A stretch of 63,852 nucleotides of DNA, the filler included, from Reticulomyxa filosa (taxonomy: Eukaryota; Protista; Foraminifera): assembly GCA_000512085.1 (NCBI GenBank). It is 20 parts of 20 records of this genome, joined end to end, with 100 filler letters (N's around TTAATTAATTAA, not from the genome) between each part and the next. Parts side by side here need not be neighbours in the genome. Positions count along the whole stretch, not along the records: positions 23,151 to 34,415 come from ASPP01023808.1; 19 more parts are not named here. One strand, written 5' to 3'. Under the pieces are notes generated by a model. It was not told where the DNA came from and searched no databases. It was given only the letters and a program-made list of their open reading frames with translations. The position numbers and the translations under genes were made by a program. Shown here piece after piece: positions 22,060 to 34,415 of this stretch. Each line of letters begins with the position of its first letter. The first letter of the stretch is position 1.

Positions 22060-23157
22060 GAGTTTGTTGAATTAAATAATTTGGTATTGTGCGGCACTTT
22101 GAATGATTTTGTATTATTTTGTTGGCATGCTTTGTCACAAAGAACAAAATTGCTTTTTTAACCAAACTTTACTTCATTGCAATTTTTCTCTCTCATTATT
22201 GTTATTTTGTTTTTTTAGTTTTTTTGAAGGCAAAAAATCTTTGAGATAATTGCAAGAAATTCATTCCAACAAATCTCGTGTTGCTGTGCAATAGTTGATT
22301 TTTGGAGAAGGGGAGGATGGTAATGGTTTTTCTCAATTGACCTCCACATATTTATGGAGTAAACAATGTTTTCGTTAGCAAAATTGCATTCTCATTTCTT
22401 GTTAGTAATTTAATTTCATAACAATTTTTATATAAAATTATCATTTTGTTTGTTAAATTCAAATTTTGGAGGAGAGTAAAAAAAGGGGACGTTCTCCAAG
22501 TTCTTGACTTTTTCTATGCCCCTTTTGGCTGAACAAAAACATTACCAATAGTGCGAACGGTGGTCAATTTCTATTTTATCACGTTTTTTCTGCGCTCTTC
22601 TTCATCTTAAGTTACTCAAAATTTTTCATGTTTAGGAGGGTGTTGCTGTAAAAAAAAAAAGCAAGAAAATTTACGTTTTTTTTGGTTCGTTCTTCATTAA
22701 TTATTTTTTTTGTCCATAAAAAAAAAAAATAAACATTTACTTTACTTCATTGATTTTTTTGATTGCTACATGGTGTCTCTGTTTCAGTTAGGCAAGGTGT
22801 CTTTTCGTGTAGATTACCCCCCCCCAGATCTTTTTGTTTCTAATATTAGTAAACATCTTGCCACATCATCTTCTAATTGGTTGTTTCAGAAAGTGCAAGA
22901 GGGAAAAAAAAGGTGTTATGCGTTCAACAAAAAAAAAAAAAAAGTAGATCGAAACAAATAAACAACACGACGTGGATTCATCGTTGTGTGTTGGAACCGG
23001 ACGTATCCAAAGTTCAACAAACTCAACAAGAAACCCCAAAAAAAAAAAAANNNNNNNNNNNNNNNNNNNNNNNNNNNNNNNNNNNNNNNNNNNNTTAATT
23101 AATTAANNNNNNNNNNNNNNNNNNNNNNNNNNNNNNNNNNNNNNNNNNNNTTTTTTT

Positions 23158-23196
<39 letters not shown>

Positions 23197-23296
23197 ATAA
23201 TAAAATAAACAAATTAAGTAAGCGTATACACATGTCTATATACAAGTAAATGTATATATGTATATACATTTACATATATGTAAGGTATGTGTATAA

Positions 23297-24111
23297 CCTT
23301 GTCTTTGTTTATTGACAGGAGCGGGCAACAACGTTGATAGACTACCCGAGCGTGAGCTATGGGATCCACTGCGACTACTGTGAGATCGACTTCGGCTTCG
23401 ACTTGGACTCAGCGCGCTATGGCTGTTGCCACTTCGGCTGCGACTCGACGCGCGACGCTTGTTCCTTCGTTTCGATCGACTTCGGTCGGGCGAGCGGCTG
23501 TCTGATGCTCGATGTTTATGTCTGTGTCTTGAACGGCTTCTGTCTGGAGATAGACTCTCACTGTTTCTTTTTTTTTTTAAAAAAATAAACAAAAAAAAAA
23601 AGAAGTGCGCGATTTTCCGCAAAAGTTTTTTTCAAAATTTTTTTTTTTTGAAAAAATAAACAAAAACAAACTTCGAAGGCTTTTCTCGCTTTGACTGGTG
23701 CTTCTCTTTGTCTTTGTCTTTGTCTTTTTCTCTTTGTCTGTCTTTATCCCTGTCTTTGCTCTTGCCTTTGCGACGACTCTCTTTGTCTTTGCTGCTCTTT
23801 GTCGGATCTTCTTTGTCTTTCGATTTTTTTGCCTCTTTTTTGTCTTTGCTTTCGTCCGATATTTTCTCGTGATCTTTGCGCGACTTCTTCTCTTTTTTAC
23901 TCTTTTCCTTATCTTTGTCCTTGTCTTTCTCCTTGTCCTTCTCTTTGTGCTTCGATTTCGATTTCTTCTCCTTGTCTTTCTCTTTGTGTTTGCGCTCTTT
24001 TGACTTACTGTTTTTCGTTGATTTCCCTACATCTGTCGCAATATCCAAGTCCTTTTCTTTTTCAAGCGACATTACTGAGTCGTAGTCTTTGGAGGGGTTT
24101 ATATCATCCAT
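23297..24111 (-). CDS. Lys/Glu/Asp-rich plus RS-domain protein (probable splicing-associated), 5' part
   Basis: Exon with KEKDKEK repeats (~24111-23672) and exon with SPDRSRSR/SRSRSG repeats (~23561-23297). Remainder lost at the contig end. Confidence 0.6.
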
Positions 24112-27100
24112 TTTATTAATTCTGCATGAACGCCCCTTTTTCAACAAAGATTTCTTTTCCAGCATGTGGTTACACGTTCTGAGTGTTCAAGTTTTCCTGA
24201 TATTTATTTTCAAAATTGGTACCCATTGTACAACTGCCACAATAAGACAAATTCAAAGCCGAATTGGGACCGGGTAATGAAAAAATGACTAGATTGAAAG
24301 AACTTGTCTACAGAGCAATAAAGAAACAATACTATAAGCTAATGTAAAAAAATAATGTAACACTCGCAAAACTTTAAAAAAATCAAAATATAAATTTCAA
24401 ATTATTTTTAAAACAACTAACAAAAAAAAAAAGTATAACTGTAAAATTAAGATTTAAAAAGTTCGAATAAACTACATTCGAAAAACAGAAAATAAAAAGA
24501 AAGTTAGCTAGAACTTTTTTTTATGTTGTCTTTAAACAAAGTTTCGTAAGGCAATGTGGGACGTCTGCTGATAGTAGTGGTACACTAACTGTAATACGAG
24601 AGGTGTTTACTAAGAATAGAATAGTGATTTCGTAAAACAAAAGAAATTGAAATAATAAAACAAGATAACAAAAGGAAAATAAAGAAAAGCAAGAAAGTAG
24701 AAGTAAGTTTGTTGAGGAAGTTAACCTACTGGGGATTCCTCCGTTCCCTTGGCGTTCAGATACTCGTAATATGGACTTGCCCTAAAGCAGTAAACTTGGG
24801 TTTTAAAACTCTACTATATAACAAAAATGACAATCATTCAATACTTCAATTATTATTCCAAGATGTTGGCTTCTGACACTAGGGTTAGATCTACTGTATA
24901 TACTGGTTCATATTATCAACGATATCATAAATAAAAGATTAATTTGATGAATAATTTCCAAAATTTATTTGTCATTATTGTCTTGAAGTACTCGCTAAAA
25001 GAAAGGAACTAGTTTATCACATGTTGATATTTACAAGTAATAATAACATAAGAAGAATTTACAGATGTAAAGAATACACAAAAATTTAGATACAAGTGAA
25101 AATTCGCAAGTTGGAAATTCGTATATATTTGCAAAAAGAAATATAATAAGAAAAATGACAATGAAGGAGAGCAATGAAAAAGTACAAGTAATATCTAGTG
25201 TAAATCGTAAAAAAGATTGTGATGTCAATAGTAGTTTAACATTACAAAGCAGACCAAAAATGATTATACTTTTAAAAGAACTTTAAAAATTTTGTCGGTG
25301 AGCACAAAGTTTACTGGAATTCTGTCAAATAAAATAGAATATCAAAGAAAAAATTGAAATTGCATTTGGTGTGAAATTGAATGGAAAAATCCGATTTACC
25401 ATTTACAGTATAATGCAAAGTAAAGTTGACACATAAAACGGCACATTATAGAAATGATTGATTTTCTTCATGAAAAACAACATTCAGACCTAATTTTTTT
25501 TTTTAAATATCTATAAATTGTGTAATTTTTAAATATCATTTTGGTTTTTTATTAAATCTTTCATAATTGTTTAAAAAATTTGAATATTTATTCATTTTTG
25601 AAAATTTTCGAGAAAAAGTTGACGATCGTGCTTACGTCGTAACTATGAAACTTGACAACTTTTTGAAAAGCATTTTCAGAAAGTCCTCAAATGCGTAGAT
25701 ATTTGTAAAAAAAAGATTAGTCTTCTACGTTGCGTAGTTTTTGAGAAAAATTAATTTCTTTGCGTTCTACTGTATAATGATAGTGACAGTAAAGAATATA
25801 ATGTAAATTAAATATATAATCGAGAAATACAGCAATCGATTTAAAATATTAGGCCGCAAGTAGGTAATCAAAACAATGAACAAATTACAATATTATATAA
25901 ACAAAGGTGATCAGAAAAATTTTTACAATTTAGTAAATAAGCTAAAACAAGCAAAACCATTAATCTATGAAGAACAAAGTGGATTCATGGTAATAGAGTC
26001 AACAAAATAATATTATAAAGTCTGTCATGCAGGATTAATGTTTAAATTATATAATACCGATATCAAATGAAATATGTTTAAATTACTATAGTCGCTGATT
26101 ACAATATCAATCTTGTAGTGACAAATGAAAACTATAGATATATGCCATTTCGAATCTAAACTGAAACAATCTAATTTTACTAAGTCAGCGAACCCATATT
26201 TAATTTATACATCAAAAAAATAAATAAACAGTAAATAAATCAAAATTTTATGACTTAAATGCCATCATGCTTATTTTACGCTGACGACATAATATTAATT
26301 GTGTTTGATCAAGTTGAAAATGATAAAATATTATAATCAATACAGCAAATGGAAATTGATAATAAATCCCGGTAATATCTATATATTACACGAATAATTA
26401 CACTTTGAAATACATTAAATATACTTGCAAATACATTGGAATTACATTCAACTTGAAAACACTTAGCTAGAATAATAGCTGTTAAGACAATAACTATACA
26501 GTTGCTCGAATATAGTCATCGACCAATCTTGCTAAACAAAACAGCAAATAGAAAACGGTATAATCTGCAACAACTTTCACGATTAAAAGAATTGTAAATG
26601 CATATGATTACGTATCGCCATACAATACTCAAATCAATGAACAAAGTGTTACTATTATCTAGCTAGTTGAATTAATGATTTGTTAACTACTAGCTGGCAA
26701 AATTGTGCGATATTAACATAAACATTTATCAGCAGTTACAACTAACTTGTAAAGAAAAAATACATGCGGTAATTCGCATTGATATAATTCACATTGTTCG
26801 TTACGTACATAATATTCTGTTTAATTCTTGTTGCTACATTAAATTAATCTTTTTTTATCAATGAATTGCAAACTAATATATATCTAATAACGTTTTATAA
26901 TAATTGCTCTGTGTTTGTTACATTTATTCCTAATAAAAAACGTTGTAAAGTAGTCATGTTCGCTTTACTGATTATATCGTCTACATTTGCAATCCAGTTC
27001 ATTTCGTCAAAGAGCATATCCAAATTAAGCAAAAGAAAAGAAATAATGAATGAACAATGAAAACAAAACGAATTCAAAATATCATATTATTCAAAACACT

Positions 27101-27245
27101 AAATGTTCTTTTTCTGAAGAGCTTCTTGCAATCCTTAAACTTTACCTTGTTCGACGTAACTGCCAAAAATGGACATACATTGAAAAGTACAAACAATGAA
27201 AAACGACAAGTAAAAACTACAATTGGATTGACGAAAAACATAAGA

Positions 27246-29843
27246 CTAAGTTTTGTAATTGCTCTTAGTATTTCTAGATTTGCAATAAGCCAAAGCATAA
27301 TTGGACGAAACAAATTGCCTAAATTGAATCTCCAAGCAGTTTAACGCTTCCATTTGCAGATAGTCAAAACTACTCACACAAATCTGTCTTTTTTTGAACT
27401 TTTCTTCCAGGTCAGCGCGTATGCGTGAGTTCACACCGATGGCATAATTCGAATTTTCACTGATGAATGATCTAAAGAGAGATGAAAACTCTTCTTTGAA
27501 ATTTTTGCGGTATGTTTGAACAGCTTTTACAAAATTGTACAAGGGCACGGTGTGATGAGCTTTGCAGTACAACTTCAAGTATTCTGCTGCAATTGGATGA
27601 TCCAGTGTTGCCTGAAAAGTGGACAGAGACGAAGACAATTACAAAATTAAAAAAAAAAAAAGCACGTACACTTACATTCAATGATGCCAATTCTGGGAAT
27701 CCAAGGTTGGTCAAATCCAATGTCCTCAATCCGTGAGAATTTTCAATTATTGTTAATTGTCTCTGGATCTCTGATTTGCGAAGACGTACCCTTTGCTCTT
27801 CCGTTACGTTGATCCGAATGACCGATTCTCGGGACTTGATGAATGTGGATCCTTTCTTTTGACACGAGAAATTTTGACTGGTATCTTCTTGGCACAAGTT
27901 TGGATTTTTGCCTTTGATGGAATTGCAAGAAGAGGATATGGTCAATGAATATTTTGCAGATTTTGTACGCGAGCTTAAAACCGTCTTAAAAATTTCGCAC
28001 AATGTTTTAATTGTATGTTCAATGACCTGAATTTCTGACCATTCTGACAATATCTTATCTTGATCTTCAAAGTCACCGCCTAGTAGGCAGACCTGTAAAT
28101 TTTTATTTTTTTTTGAGAATATAAAAAAAGATGAAGAAGAAATTACTTTTTTATTTTTTTGTTTCGACTCAACATTTCGAGTAAATTCTTGGATAATTTT
28201 GGTCATACGTTCCAATGGGATTACAATCAATTTTTGCAAGGTAAACGAAATGGTAATGGTCAATCCTACAAATAGACTAATCATCAACGCTAATAAAGCA
28301 ATGTTTATTATGTGTCTCAACCTCACTTCTGAGTAAACCGACACTTGAAGGAGCACATTGTTCGACTTCCAACATTGAATTTCGTTTGACCGAAATTTGT
28401 CCGTAGATTTTTGTGCATAAATGTAACTTTCAGTAATTGTTAACGTGACCACTTCTGTTAATTTTTGTTGTTGTCAAAAGATAATCATGTATTTTTAACA
28501 CATGCCCAAACCTGGGTACTTTGCGATAAAACGCTCGACTAAATCATTCAACGTGGTGTCCATTCCATTTTTGGTGTAATATTCTTGAAAAAACTGAGAG
28601 CAATAATTGAAGATGTCGTAACGTTCATTTTCATAAAATGTTAGCAAGAATAAAATTACGACACTTGCCAAAATGACAAGAGTGATATTTTGGATGATTG
28701 TACCTACTACTTTGGTACCAACTTTTGATGTTTGCTTTTCACAAATGGTGTGCACAAGAGAATTTGCATTAAAAGAATGAAAAAGAAAATGCAGAGATTG
28801 CAAAGATATGCTGTGTCAACTTTTTTTTTTGCGTTAATGTCAACACTTTTTTTTTCGTTTGAATTGTCTTTTTTCCAACCAGGAACAGAACAACTACTTT
28901 CTATTCCCAAAAAGCAAAAAGTACAAAGTTTATGCTCACGGCAATTACAAAGCAACTCTTATCAAAGCCAACCTAACCTGGATCCGGTTGTGGTCTTTGC
29001 AATTCTTCTTTTTGTTCCAAAGTCTTTTTGGAAAATTGTTCTTTTTGATTTTTTGCCAATCGTGCAACCCGCGCAAATCTTAGCAGCCGTGACACTGTCA
29101 ATACGGCATCACCGGCCTGACTAGTAGTCCAATTGGACTATTACAGATGCAGTGCACATTACACCAAAAAAAAGATACTTGATTTGCTTATGATTTCAAA
29201 CACAACTTGTACAAAGACACTTAACCCAATTAAAACCGATATCAAAAAATATCCGGGATGTGATACACAAATCGGTCAATAATGTTAATGTGCCAATCAA
29301 ATCCATCCAAAAAAAGCCACTGCCAATGTATTTGGTGTAAGTGGCACATTCCAGAACAAAATCTGTAGCCAATATTAAAAAGATAGTTGTCAAAATTGCA
29401 TCAATAGCTCCGTCCCACTGTTTTGACAGTGCCGCACGACTGATATCAAATAAAAACAATGACACAAATACGCTTCCATCCAATATAACTTGGTAAACGA
29501 TTGTTGATAACAATTTATCCTATTTTTTGTACAAGTTTAACAGAAGATCTTTTGCATTGGATGAAGAGAATTTTCCCCCGTTTTTTTAACAGGATCACAC
29601 CGTGAGAAGCGGACAGCGACCAGCCCTCACTTGGTTCATGGGGGCGGCCTCTTGATATTGTGAATGGACAGACTTTTTTGTCCAATCAATTGCGATTTGT
29701 GAACTATTTGGATCATCAAAAAAAGAAAGTCGAATCTTCGAGTCAATATTTTTCAAAAAGCTCCATCTGTTGGGAGGGCTACGTTTTATAGCGGGCTCTA
29801 GGGTCTTCAGGTCTTGATTTTTAAATTTTTCTTCACAATTCAT
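27246..29843 (-). CDS. Voltage-sensor/6-TM (alveolate adenylyl-cyclase-type membrane module) fused to a C-terminal RGS domain; 8 exons, 677 aa
   Basis: Exons 29843-29631, 29519-29226, 29137-28978, 28900-28821, 28734-28512, 28454-28174, 28092-27676 and 27611-27246, all GT-AG, total 2034 nt in frame. S1-S3: SLFLFDI..ATDFVLE..YIGSGFFWMDLIGTLTLLTD. S4: RLLRFARVARLAK. S5 after SKVG; S6 then LIVIPLERM. RGS: SLN|ATLDHPIAAEYLKLYC..FISENSNYAIGVN..SFDYLQMEALNCLE..FRQFVSS. Confidence 0.82.
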
Positions 29844-29916
29844 AACAGACGATAATTTTTGTTGAATAAATTAATGGAACAAAAATGAACAAGCATAGTG
29901 AAACGTTTACATTACT

Positions 29917-29924
29917 TGACGTCA
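29917..29924. promoter_or_regulatory. CRE-like palindrome TGACGTCA
   Basis: 74 nt upstream of ATG 29843. The same palindrome lies at 4934-4941, 86 nt upstream of ATG 4848. Confidence 0.35.
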
Positions 29925-31271
29925 TCACACACGATCTTTTTTTGCAAAGCTATTTTTGCTCACGTTTTAAAAATGAATATTTCACTGCAGTTATGACATC
30001 TTATTGCATATCTTTTCTTAATTTGACTTTTTGTTTAGTCACACAAAAAAGCAATTTTTCGTATTGCATTCTGATGTCAGAATTTATTGGACTGTGAGAA
30101 TGATTTGCATCAAAGTGACTATCACGTGATATAGATTTGAAGAATTTTAAAAAATTCTTAAGAACCTTCAACTATTGTGTACCATTTATCTCGCTGAACA
30201 TGTGGTCTTACTGCCAGAGGGAAGTATAACACAAAAATTTACTTTTTCGCAAGTTTCACGAAATGTACAACCTAAAAACTAGTAACACTAAAATCGAAAA
30301 AATTCATTTCATGATTTGTTAGAAATTCTTGGTTATTTCAGTGGAAAATGACTCAAGTTGTAGTGCAATGCCCTACTAATTACAGTAGAAGCTTCATATG
30401 AGCGAGGGAATCCTTTTTTCCTCAACAACGTTCACTGTCTTTCTTCTTTCGCTTTTCTGTTTTCTTATTTCTTGTCGTTGAGCTGTTTATCTTGATTATT
30501 TAATTACTTTTGAAAACACCTTTCAGTAATTACTTTCTTATTACACTCAATCTTCCTACAAAGTCAATAGAAGTATAGCTTCCAGCGAGACACAGTGGTT
30601 TAAAACGAAATTAACCCATTTGTAATCAGACGTCATACACCAAAAAAAAAATTTCAAAAAATTGTCTCTCCAAGTAAAAAAGTGAATATATAAATAACGG
30701 CTTAATGTTTTAATTTAGTATTTACAGTTATCGTAAATTATGATATTTACTATTGGGTCTAATCAGATTGTGTTGCATATTGATTAACTGAAGTCTATTG
30801 AATCAAGGTTACTGTTGCTGAATTTTTATTATTTGATATATTTGTTACATCTTTTAAGACAAAAACAATACAAAATTTCTTTAAACTAAGATAATATATC
30901 ACAATTAAAAAGAAACCAATTTACCAGTGCAAAAAATTATTTGATTTAAGCGATCGTTTGCTTGCTGGTTGCTGCTTTGGTCTGAATGCATTTATTTGAT
31001 AATAGTGTTTCACTTTGATGTTTTTGTACTTGATTGCGATGATGCTGGCACTTCTACTTTGGTAAGTTTAATAATAGATTGTTCTATTAAATAATTTTTC
31101 GCTAGTAACAACATTGTGTATATCTATTTTGACTTTATGTTAGTATTTAAACAAATTTTCAGCAAAAATATCCACTGTTCGAAGTTGGAGTTTCATTCAA
31201 CAGCTTTTCCCCTAAAGCCTAAGTTTGTACAATAACGCTTCTAAGAGCATCAAGCAGCAAAACCGGACAAA

Positions 31272-32691
31272 ATGCTCAACAATATGAAGGTTTCTTCGGA
31301 ATATAAATTGAAAATTTGGTCTTTATTGTGCGTTATTAGTGTTGTAGTGTTGTTCTTTTCCGTTCCAAGTCAGTTGCGTTCAACAAAAGAAACAGTTTGG
31401 TTCAATTATTTTTGAATTTTTATGAATTTCAAACATCAAAAGTAAAAATAACCCAACAAACAGTTAAAGAATTACGCTACGGCCACAAGTTCAAAATATA
31501 ACGAAACGATTGCCAACCATAGTTTGATGTACGTACAAAATACGTGTTATAAACGTAAAAAAAAGTGACATTAAAAAAAAAACATATAAAACAAACTTAG
31601 GCTTGCGTGGTCAACCTATTGTGACAAATCTGCAGTTGAGGATTGGAATTGCCCTTATTGCACAAGTGCCAAAAACTTTGAACTGTATGAATACATTGAA
31701 GGGGGAAAAGCAGAAAGTCTGGTTGCAATTGTCGGATATGACAAAACGTATCATCAAGTTGTTGTATCTTTTCGTGGAAGCGCCAACTTGCCTAATTGGG
31801 TGGTTAAGTACAAAATTTTTTTGTTTGTTTGTTCCTTGCAAAAAAGGATGTTGTGCTGTTGACGACGTATAATCCCGTAAAAAAAAAAAAAAACAACGTA
31901 CGGTTTGGGTGTATGGTCACTCATAAAGACTGACCTTCAAGCCTGGCAAGTTTCGTATCCAGCAGTATCCGATGGCCTTGTTCATGCAGGTTTTTACGAG
32001 GCATGGAAGGATTTGGAAGATTCGGTGACGAGTGCATACAAGACAGTGTTGGCAGACTATCCTCAATCACCTGTTTTGGTGACAGGGCATTCGTTGGGTG
32101 CGGCATTGGCAGCATTGGCTGTTTTGGACTTAAAGAATGTCGGAACTGATGACAGTAGCACCTATCCAAGTGCATTTTACGTGCACACGTTTGGACAGCC
32201 ACGATGGGCAAATGCTGCTGTAGCATCGTATTTCGAAAGTTCGGTTAGCTATCATTGGAGAGTTGTCAATATGCATGATATTGTCCCTCAAGTTAAGTCA
32301 CACTTTGAAAATAAATAAATAAATAAATAAATTTAACAAATACATACAAAAATTACAGGTACCAACCACATTTATGAACTACAAGCATACCACTAAAGAT
32401 ATATGGTATTGGTGCGATCGACCACTTTCTTATTACTTGTGCGACTCTTCTGACGGTGAAGACAAAAAGTGTCAATATCTCGCCGGAACTGTCGGAGATC
32501 ATTTGGTAAGTGTCCTCTCCAACATTTATTTAATTTTTTTTTTTTTTTTGGGAATTTCAATCTGCTCATTGTTTTCCTTTTGTGTTATTTGGCAACAGTT
32601 TTATATGAACACCAAGTTCGTTTGTGGCCAGTTTTCGATGCCAGACAACAAATATCTTCCTCCATCCTGTTTTCCAAATCCCACAAATTAA
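31272..32691 (+). CDS. Secreted class-3 lipase; 6 exons
   Basis: Exons 31272-31394, 31464-31528, 31601-31802, 31929-32291, 32359-32505 and 32599-32691. Hydrophobic N-terminus, TYC..W.C.YC, VSFRGSANLPNWV|TDL, VHAGF, GHSLG, TFGQPR, HDIVP, DHL|FY. Ser-Asp-His triad intact. Confidence 0.92.
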
Positions 32692-33287
32692 TGTGGATTT
32701 TCCCAATGTTTGATTGATCAAAATCTCGGTGTCTTAAAAGTTGTAAAGGTTGTCTTTTAAATACGAAGTTCGCTTTGTAAACTACTTACTTTTCCATTAC
32801 GAAAGAGGTTTTTAAAGTTTTCATTCTTTCCTTTTTTTTTCATCAGTCAATGAAAAATATATGCAAGCGAATCGAACGTTGCAAAATAAAATGGAGTGCA
32901 AGCGACTAGGCTCTCCGAAATCCCTTTTGAACTTTTGGAACAAGTTCGAAGGGAAAAAAAAACAGTGTCTAAGCGGATATTCAGTTATGTAGTTTTTTGT
33001 AGATTTGTAAATTTTGTACTGATACGTTACACCGAATGCAATATTAAGACGAATTAACAAGTTGATATATAAATTAATTTGGAGAACCTTGTTTTGTAGA
33101 AAAATTATCCAATTTCGAAATTTGACAAAATGCACTAGAATTTGGGAAAACTTTGTATTTTGCAATGACGAAACAAATGGCGACTGACAACAACAAGTCA
33201 ACCCAAAACAACATTTCACAACCACAAAATGTTGTTTGTGATTGGCGCAATGACGAAAAACAATTTCGAAATACAGTATCTTTGTGT

Positions 33288-34285
33288 TCACAAATCTTCA
33301 ATGGGTTCAGACATATGGTGATTATTATGTTCATCTTCATCAGGCTCATTAGCATCCTCAAGTCCAAGCATTTGGTCCTCTACATATGCAAAACAACCCG
33401 CAATTGTGTGTAATAAAAAATTGTGCTTACAAAAAAGAGGTTATTATAAACAAATAAGTGAATATATAAATAATACATGTGGTATATATTTAAATGTATG
33501 TACATTACAAAAAAAAAAAAAAAGAAAGACAAACCAAAATTGTCATTTTCATCAGGATAGTTGCCATCAGTATTTTCATTATCCACAGACATTTGCAAAT
33601 TAACATCATTTTCGTCATCAGCTTCCACAGCCAATAACGTGATAATAAACACCAAGTCACTATTCGGAGGTACCAGACCACCGGCGCCGTGAGTTCCATA
33701 CCCTAGCCGCGATGGTACCCACACTTTGGCTTTTTCTCCTTCGCTCATGGTAAGTAAGGCTTCTTCTAATCCCGGGACTTGACTGCTGACGCCCAATTGT
33801 GTGCGATGTTCGTAGTTGGCAATTTTTCGTGGTGTAAACTGCTCCCAGCGACCTTCGAATGTGATTGTTTATTTGTGCTTACTTTTATGTCACTATTTTA
33901 TATACATATATACATATATGTATATATATATATATTGACCAGTATCTCTGTGATGAATATAGCCCAAATATTTATATCGAACAAAAGAATAAGGCAATGG
34001 ATAAGTAGTGCCATTGCCAGGTTTTAATGTTCGAAAATCAATTCGACTGTAGTCGTCATGAGGAAAGGGGTCATCACTATCATCGTTTTCTTCGACATGT
34101 TCGTTGTCCTCATCTTGTTCATCGTGTTCATCATGTTCCTCCTCCTCCTCCTCTTCCTCTTCATTGTCGTCTCGGTTGGATTTCAGTCCCCCTTTGTCGC
34201 GTTTCGTCAGAGCCTTTGTATTTGCGGCGTCATCGGAAGACGGGACGGTAGTAGGTCCCCCAGGCGTGTCGTGATTTCCAACAAC
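33288..34285 (-). CDS. FKBP-type PPIase domain protein with acidic flanks, 5' partial
   Basis: Spliced exons give TLKPGNGTTYP..VRYKYLGYI..LGVSSQVPGLEEALLTMSEGEKAKVWVPSRLGYG..GGLVPPNSDLVFIITLL. Last exon ends TGA at 33290-33288. Confidence 0.85.
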
Positions 34286-34377
34286 TATCCATTTGTATAT
34301 TCGGGATGTGTTTTATGACCCCAAAACTATATGCACGTCCCAAAGTGTTGTGTGTTCCACCAGACGCACTATCAATT

Positions 34378-34415
<38 letters not shown>

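Follow-up and report, generated by a model that had tools for sequence, protein, structure and literature searches.

Does a gene that carries only an RGS label in the databases also encode a voltage sensor and, if so, what could this sensor control? The question is raised by a minus-strand gene of the foraminiferan Reticulomyxa filosa, contained in the piece 23151-34415 of the 63,852-nt stretch analysed here (the window, which consists of short contigs joined by N-spacers; all positions refer to it). A query with exon 2 of this gene returned one protein match, P0001, that is, the R. filosa hypothetical protein RFI_27444, which UniRef describes as RGS domain-containing only. An original prediction, made from the DNA itself, had proposed that minus-strand exon 29137-28978 (exon 3 of our model) encodes an S4 helix with five basic residues at i+3 spacing. 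Our analysis supports this motif as the genuine S4 of a domain with the voltage-sensor fold, on the basis of profile matches and of fold evidence from related proteins (kin), and places the gene in a sensor-RGS family that is a new output variant on the already known membrane module of ACalpha adenylyl cyclases.

The exon 3 frame reads as originally stated, and the series from R186 (29089-87) to K198 (29053-51) was confirmed, with hydrophobic pairs separating the basic residues at each i+3 step; a sixth in-register basic residue, K201 (29044-29042), follows in a polar context. A pattern of four [RK]-plus-two-hydrophobic units closed by [RK] occurs a single time when all six frames of the window are read, and was absent from all 60 order-2 Markov simulations of it. 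Scored against a family profile from which the window protein had been excluded, the exon 3 frame matched at S4 positions with an E value of 0.0004, and the other nine six-frame pieces listed fell below 0 bits. Hydropathy of this S4 is 0.78, within the range of 16 kin (0.70-1.29). Passages of a review assign four to six continuous charges to most known sensors (PMC10651576), a range that includes the charge count of the window copy.

The acidic partners expected in S1-S3 were counted over 70 homologues. D96, D124 and D154 align with an acidic residue (D/E) in all 70 and D144 in 69, and the window copy retains these four counter-charges. Two of them had been anticipated, D124 in 'ATD' and D144 in 'WMD'; the third candidate put forward, E128 in 'LE', proved unconserved, and D96 and D154 had been overlooked. 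A further acid, D111, is matched in 46 of the 70 sequences.

Fold and topology were modelled on kin. For P0015, from Nonionella stella, the top 13 structure matches were all voltage-sensor-bearing chains (Z 9.2-10.3 over 117-142 residues), including the sensor domains of TPC3, Nav, Cav, Ci-VSP, Kv1.2 and KvAP. Most of these alignments end at kin residues 201-204 (Kv1.2 and Ci-VSP at 202-203), and these end points by themselves suggest that the stretch kept in the window copy may be the canonical membrane part of S4. The AlphaFold model of P0004 (predicted local distance difference test 74, predicted template modelling score 0.61) runs from S1-S3 and one long S4 through helix 5, an alpha/beta domain of three helices, four strands and a short helix, and helix 6 into the stalk and RGS domain. 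For the window protein, the predicted topology is likewise sensor, cytosolic linker, helix 5, outside domain, helix 6 and cytosolic stalk plus RGS, the alpha/beta domain being placed outside because of the helix count. The stalk is among the best-kept segments (57% identity to kin) and corresponds to PF26726 in precomputed annotation of kin; it may resemble the dimeric HAMP bundle that follows a last membrane helix, and Pfam returned no HAMP match on the window protein.

An S5-pore loop-S6 unit with a selectivity filter was also looked for, and no filter motif occurs in the protein. The 677 residues contain no G-[YF]-G, and their sole GxG, at residue 137, leaves none after helix 6, the position at which passages on the cyclase form place a GXG motif (PMC3283738). 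Among kin, G-[YF]-G was seen after the stalk in P0035, P0053 and P0060, the latter two bearing a cyclase domain. Ion_trans matches were obtained for 17 of 59 scanned homologues, and all 17 end at profile position 105-127 of 241, which corresponds to S1-S4 without the pore.

The relatives of this protein were collected by running HMMER over 1.84 billion representatives, which gave 76 matches, the window protein itself included. RGS was identified in 26 of the 59 homologues scanned, phosphodiesterase (PDE) in nine, cyclase in four and an HD domain in one, with Ion_trans and RGS together in 10. Both S3 and RGS were covered in 29 of 91 homologues (at least 24 distinct ones once five cluster mates were removed); an i+3 basic S4 run is retained in 28 of these 29, and 23 of the 24 distinct homologues have an arginine-rich S4. 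Residues 52-458 aligned in one piece, at 189 bits, with a profile of 15 cyclase-, PDE- or HD-bearing members, and the Atlas structural neighbours were ACalpha-type cyclase and PDE clusters (template modelling, TM, score 0.39-0.44), so that the protein represents the ACalpha membrane module with an RGS output. This sensor homology was detected only by the full HMMER scan and by profiles; no sensor match came from Pfam, from a sequence search of the PDB or from word-based searches for homologues, whether single exons or the public protein served as query. A FastTree phylogeny of the membrane module distributed the RGS fusions over three groups with weak deep support, and all named members within the close clade come from foraminifera. 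We found no paper describing a sensor-RGS fusion in a literature search that did not cover some RGS-architecture surveys that could list it; in one such survey 'ion channel' is absent from the main text, its supplementary architecture figures not being covered.

ACalpha enzymes are presented as 'ion channel/enzyme fusion' adenylyl cyclases of Paramecium, Tetrahymena and Plasmodium in passages of two papers that both cite Weber et al. 2004 (PMC10651576, PMC3283738), and part of another text describes the Phytophthora members PPTG_13136 and PPTG_13761 as lacking a pore helix (PMC12223298). The window protein shares with these cyclases S1-S4, helices 5-6 around an outside domain and the helical stalk, but has neither a cyclase domain nor the G-F-G motif and ends in RGS instead; its S4 is also shorter than in most members with this module. 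Other fusion partners of this membrane module are an HD domain in P0067 and the combination of PDE and cyclase in P0053 and P0060; in the Atlas, clusters that carry it are also listed from spirochaetes and Fibrobacterota. A first metagenome scan recovered no family locus and a second one three, of which L001 and L002 comprise the membrane part only and L003 is cyclase-type. The latter (L003:3764-6397, plus strand) encodes an 877-aa ACalpha-type protein with a long S4, a G-F-G motif and a class III cyclase; its contig is intronless and bacterial-looking, and the gene lies between that of a solute-binding protein and ABC-transporter-like permease/ATPase open reading frames (ORFs).

As to function, we tentatively propose as the most likely reading, at somewhat less than an even chance, that this pore-less sensor moves with voltage and acts via the stalk on a probably non-catalytic RGS docking module; the movement, the coupling and the partner are what we infer. 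S4 would move with membrane potential against the S1-S3 acids, its movement would shift the helix 5/helix 6 pair together with the stalk, and the stalk shift would alter how easily a partner, perhaps G-alpha or another protein, can reach the RGS domain, which would dock it without acting catalytically. Use of a sensor domain without a channel pore would be in common with Ci-VSP/TPTE, SLC9C1 and Hv1; indeed, the P0015 model matches Ci-VSP with Z 9.7 and SLC9C1 with Z 8.9. A further likeness to Ci-VSP is the presence of four S4 arginines in both, as given in passages of a review (PMC10651576). Unlike Ci-VSP and SLC9C1, the window protein has no phosphatase or exchanger domain, and since two membrane helices and an outside domain separate S4 from the output, coupling cannot follow the direct S4-enzyme linker of the voltage-sensing phosphatase type. 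On a wider scale, membrane voltage might directly control RGS in foraminiferal and other protist receptors, providing G-protein control without G-protein-coupled receptors or ion flux, with the ACalpha module as a general transducer for cyclases, phosphodiesterases, HD domains and RGS and the window copy as a retuned short-S4 version; we regard this extension as doubtful.

Several observations weigh against voltage-driven coupling in the window copy. S4 carries 12 basic residues in 13 of 15 close kin (four of the ~12 within an outer arginine-glycine run) versus six here, by our own count, as the automated one took the wrong run in the other two kin; the outer arginine run is missing entirely from the window copy, and the hydrophobic inner end of S4 is gone as well. 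Six of seven pairwise alignments open an eight-residue gap over the outer run, and the seventh shifts by six residues. The terminal branch measures 0.95 versus 0.12-0.46 for 10 of the 13 other clade members, a sampling-dependent contrast, and helix 5 is 27% identical to kin versus 77% among kin, a divergence that could mean broken coupling. Position 121, three residues before the inner S2 acid, is where an aromatic charge-transfer residue is expected; this copy has Leu there, and of the 70 homologues 45 have Phe and 22 Leu. Foldseek with the P0015 model ranked the same sensor families first but at E 0.06 or weaker (none at or below 0.001), and unrelated helical bundles reach Z 9.1 against this model, which leaves support for the predicted four-helix sensor fold, modelled on kin only, at a moderate level. 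No voltage-dependence measurement on any recombinant member of the module was found in the literature searched, and passages of a 2023 review describe the cyclase form as not definitely characterised as a recombinant protein (PMC10651576).

As far as its sequence tells, then, the S4 of the window copy has lost the outer charges and keeps a continuous five-charge core. The original prediction had called the motif an established hallmark of a functional sensor; a genuine S4 with counter-charges is indeed there, but 'established' goes too far for a helix with about half of the S4 charges of its kin lost. Its argument that retention implies selection on the sensor is similarly overstated for an eroded S4 on a long branch. 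Moreover, an S4 crossing would be needed to keep RGS in the cytosol, so retention of the helix alone does not show voltage sensing.

Indeed, S4 and its charge pairs might be kept merely for folding or topology, the protein being a drifting paralogue or one driven by its outside domain. The loss of half of the close-kin S4 charges, the long branch, the diverged helix 5 and the degenerate RGS domain would all fit such a sensor relic, as would P0005, a paralogue from the same species whose public model lacks any S4 run, though that model is possibly mis-spliced. Cyclic nucleotide-gated channels, which have S4 arginines and little voltage dependence, also speak for it. Erosion has nonetheless left an unbroken core of five charges, none of the four invariant acids has been lost, S4 hydropathy remains inside the kin range, and the 2034-nt frame is free of stops and frameshifts. 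In addition, the window copy has Arg at the R189 column, where all 15 close kin have a neutral residue (Met in 12 and Leu, Ile or Val in three, by ungapped scoring). We consider a relic rather unlikely.

P0005 (RFI_35292), with which the window gene pairs (support 0.83) inside a clade of support 1.00, combines RGS with a weak kinase match (E 0.0002), and its public model could be fused with a neighbour as well as mis-spliced. In close kin, including P0002-P0004, P0006, P0015 and P0085-P0090, a neutral residue interrupts the S4 series; gaps in this arginine series are tied to gating-pore currents in passages of a review (PMC10651576), so that these kin might leak protons or cations. The best sequence matches of the family's long S4 were HCN1/3/4 (E 0.002-0.03), a weak resemblance perhaps due to a simple arginine repeat; unlike HCN channels, the window protein has no pore and no cyclic-nucleotide-binding domain, and it lacks the long S4.

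The output domain, on which the original prediction was silent, is RGS instead of cyclase and is degenerate in the window copy. Pfam recognised PF00615 with E 4.6e-6 (27.5 bits versus a cut-off of 23.9) and gave no Guanylate_cyc match for a class III cyclase domain; the family profile reached RGS4 with E 4.4e-21, and the open frame ends 10 residues after the domain. P579, L580, G615, Q652 and Q655 stand at RGS4 E87, N88, N128, D163 and R167, the last of which we take to be a functional position. Glu87, replaced by Pro in this copy, is present in 28 of 31 RGS-bearing kin, Asn88 in 17 and Asn128 in 13, whereas Asp163 and Arg167 occur in one and two of them, respectively. Outside the close clade, Glu87 is kept in 14, Asn88 in 11 and Asn128 in 13 of 15 members, versus none of 16 close-clade members with Asn128. 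Changing RGS4 Glu87/Asn88 to Ala abolished GTPase-activating protein (GAP) activity according to part of one report (PMC10794492), and part of another names Asn88, Asn128 and Asp163 as key G-alpha contacts (PMC8252600). By these substitutions, the RGS of the window copy is likely devoid of GAP activity and non-catalytic, as in the scaffolding RGS domains known from passages of PMC3971589, and the outer family members are possible GAPs.

Were the domain catalytic, voltage could instead set the rate at which RGS switches off a self-activating G-alpha. In bikonts, G-alpha reportedly activates itself and is controlled by GAPs, seven-transmembrane (7TM) RGS proteins among them (PMC3865004), and the RGS fold appears intact in kin models: the RGS part of the P0004 model aligns with RGS8 and RGS4 at a TM score of about 0.8, and Foldseek with the full-length kin model returned RGS-fold chains only. 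The conserved Glu87, Asn88 and Asn128 of most outer members agree with this view, which suits them better than the window gene, where Pro, Leu and Gly occupy these positions; together with the absence of Asn128 throughout the close clade and the near absence of Asp163 and Arg167 across the family, this makes a voltage-regulated GAP clearly improbable here. The window protein does resemble 7TM-RGS (Arabidopsis RGS1 and those of Trichomonas and Naegleria) as a multi-pass bikont protein with C-terminal cytosolic RGS (PMC3865004; passages of PMC9283941), but it has a six-helix voltage-sensor module, no 7TM bundle, and lost GAP contacts.

The deposited annotation includes exon 3 only in part. Our eight-exon model was assembled from splice sites and reading frames, splicing thus being predicted; all introns are GT-AG and 57-111 nt long, and the product is a single open frame of 677 aa without stop or frameshift. 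Exon 3 is bounded by AG/GT (acceptor 29139-38, donor 28977-76) in phase with its neighbours, and was correctly said to lie outside the ORF track: its 54-aa stop-to-stop frame has no Met and is therefore missing from start-codon ORF tracks. RFI_27444 matches this model over most of its length but joins 29269 to 29078, with loss of the S3 end, the loop, R186 and R189, that is, half of S4, and retains three inserts (one ahead of exon 4 and one each in introns 6 and 7) that are absent from kin or read as intron sequence. If this annotation were right, the transcript would encode a partial S4 and no intact sensor. On a family profile built from 35 homologues, the window protein left out, the eight-exon model matched as one domain at 440.9 bits, the public model in three pieces at 364.7 bits. 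We scored 14 of the 15 open joins between exons 2 and 3, leaving out 29321/29094, which removes S3: the best, 29226/29137, obtained 110.3 bits, the next 107.9 and the public join 99.4, and the whole S4 motif is present in the five top-scoring joins. Since the margin over neighbouring joins is small, S4 inclusion is more secure than the exact 5' edge of exon 3. Against 74 homologues, the spliced sensor scored higher than its public counterpart in 60 cases and lower in 11, with three ties, and the alignment runs through S4 in 53 of the 74 versus four with the public model. The public join also uses an AAG acceptor, though intron 4 of our model has one too, and treats as intron a stretch (29137-29079) with 47% AT, versus 58-81% in the seven introns. 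Skipping exon 3 alone brings a stop at residue 205. Exon 3 is thus very probably coding, judging from these sequence features, and RFI_27444 appears mis-spliced at four places within 27611-29843, the S3-S4 junction and the three inserts; that its join is the true one strikes us as very improbable. Because public annotation conceals half of S4, correction is warranted. Exons 3 and 4 (28821-29137) sum to 240 nt, and their joint skipping, in frame, would give a hypothetical 597-aa form without S4, which would be expected to flip topology.

Least probable of all is a subunit of an ion channel, the role put forward for the Paramecium cyclase and a reading that the six membrane helices with an S4 and the conductance reported for the Paramecium enzyme in passages of PMC3283738 and PMC12414865 would favour, but to which the missing G-[YF]-G motif, the Ion_trans matches that never extend to the pore half and the modelling of the helix 5-6 segment as a soluble alpha/beta domain are opposed.

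Table 1. Predicted features of the sensor-RGS gene (window positions).
Feature	Position	Strand	Residues	Remarks
Whole gene	27246..29843	-	677 aa	8 predicted exons
Exons	29843-29631, 29519-29226, 29137-28978, 28900-28821, 28734-28512, 28454-28174, 28092-27676, 27611-27246	-		
Exon 3	28978..29137	-		S3-S4 loop, S4, start of cytosolic linker; public model begins at 29078
S1 helix	29436..29513	-	74-99	Hydropathy peak; holds D96
S2 helix	29343..29417	-	106-130	D111, L121, D124
S3 helix	29244..29324	-	137-163	D144, D154
S4 core	29051..29098	-	183-198	R186, R189, R192, R195, K198
Fifth membrane helix	28642..28698	-	262-280	Hydropathy peak; aligned in family
Small alpha/beta domain	28321..28635	-	283-368	Spans intron 5; predicted extracellular
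Sixth membrane helix	28249..28311	-	372-392	Hydropathy peak
Cytosolic helical stalk	27988..28230	-	399-452	Spans intron 6
RGS domain	27279..27611	-	557-667	Last exon; degenerate

The same contig carries a class 3 lipase gene (31528-32691, plus strand) and an FKBP-type isomerase gene (33380-34312, minus strand), and the preceding one encodes ribosomal protein S11; the lipase and FKBP neighbours gave no functional hint for the sensor-RGS gene.

Known examples of voltage sensors that drive something other than a channel are few: a phosphatase, a Na+/H+ exchanger and possibly the protozoan cyclase. An RGS output, if true, would tie membrane potential to G-protein timing in organisms where GAPs are thought to control G-alpha, and the RGS fusion offers a second readout on whether the membrane module of the Paramecium and Plasmodium cyclases is a pore-less voltage sensor. 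While the family as a whole is of genuine interest, the window copy is a diverged member of it, with functional roles that are so far predicted; as a natural short-S4, GAP-deficient variant, this gene would serve better as a comparison than as the lead example.
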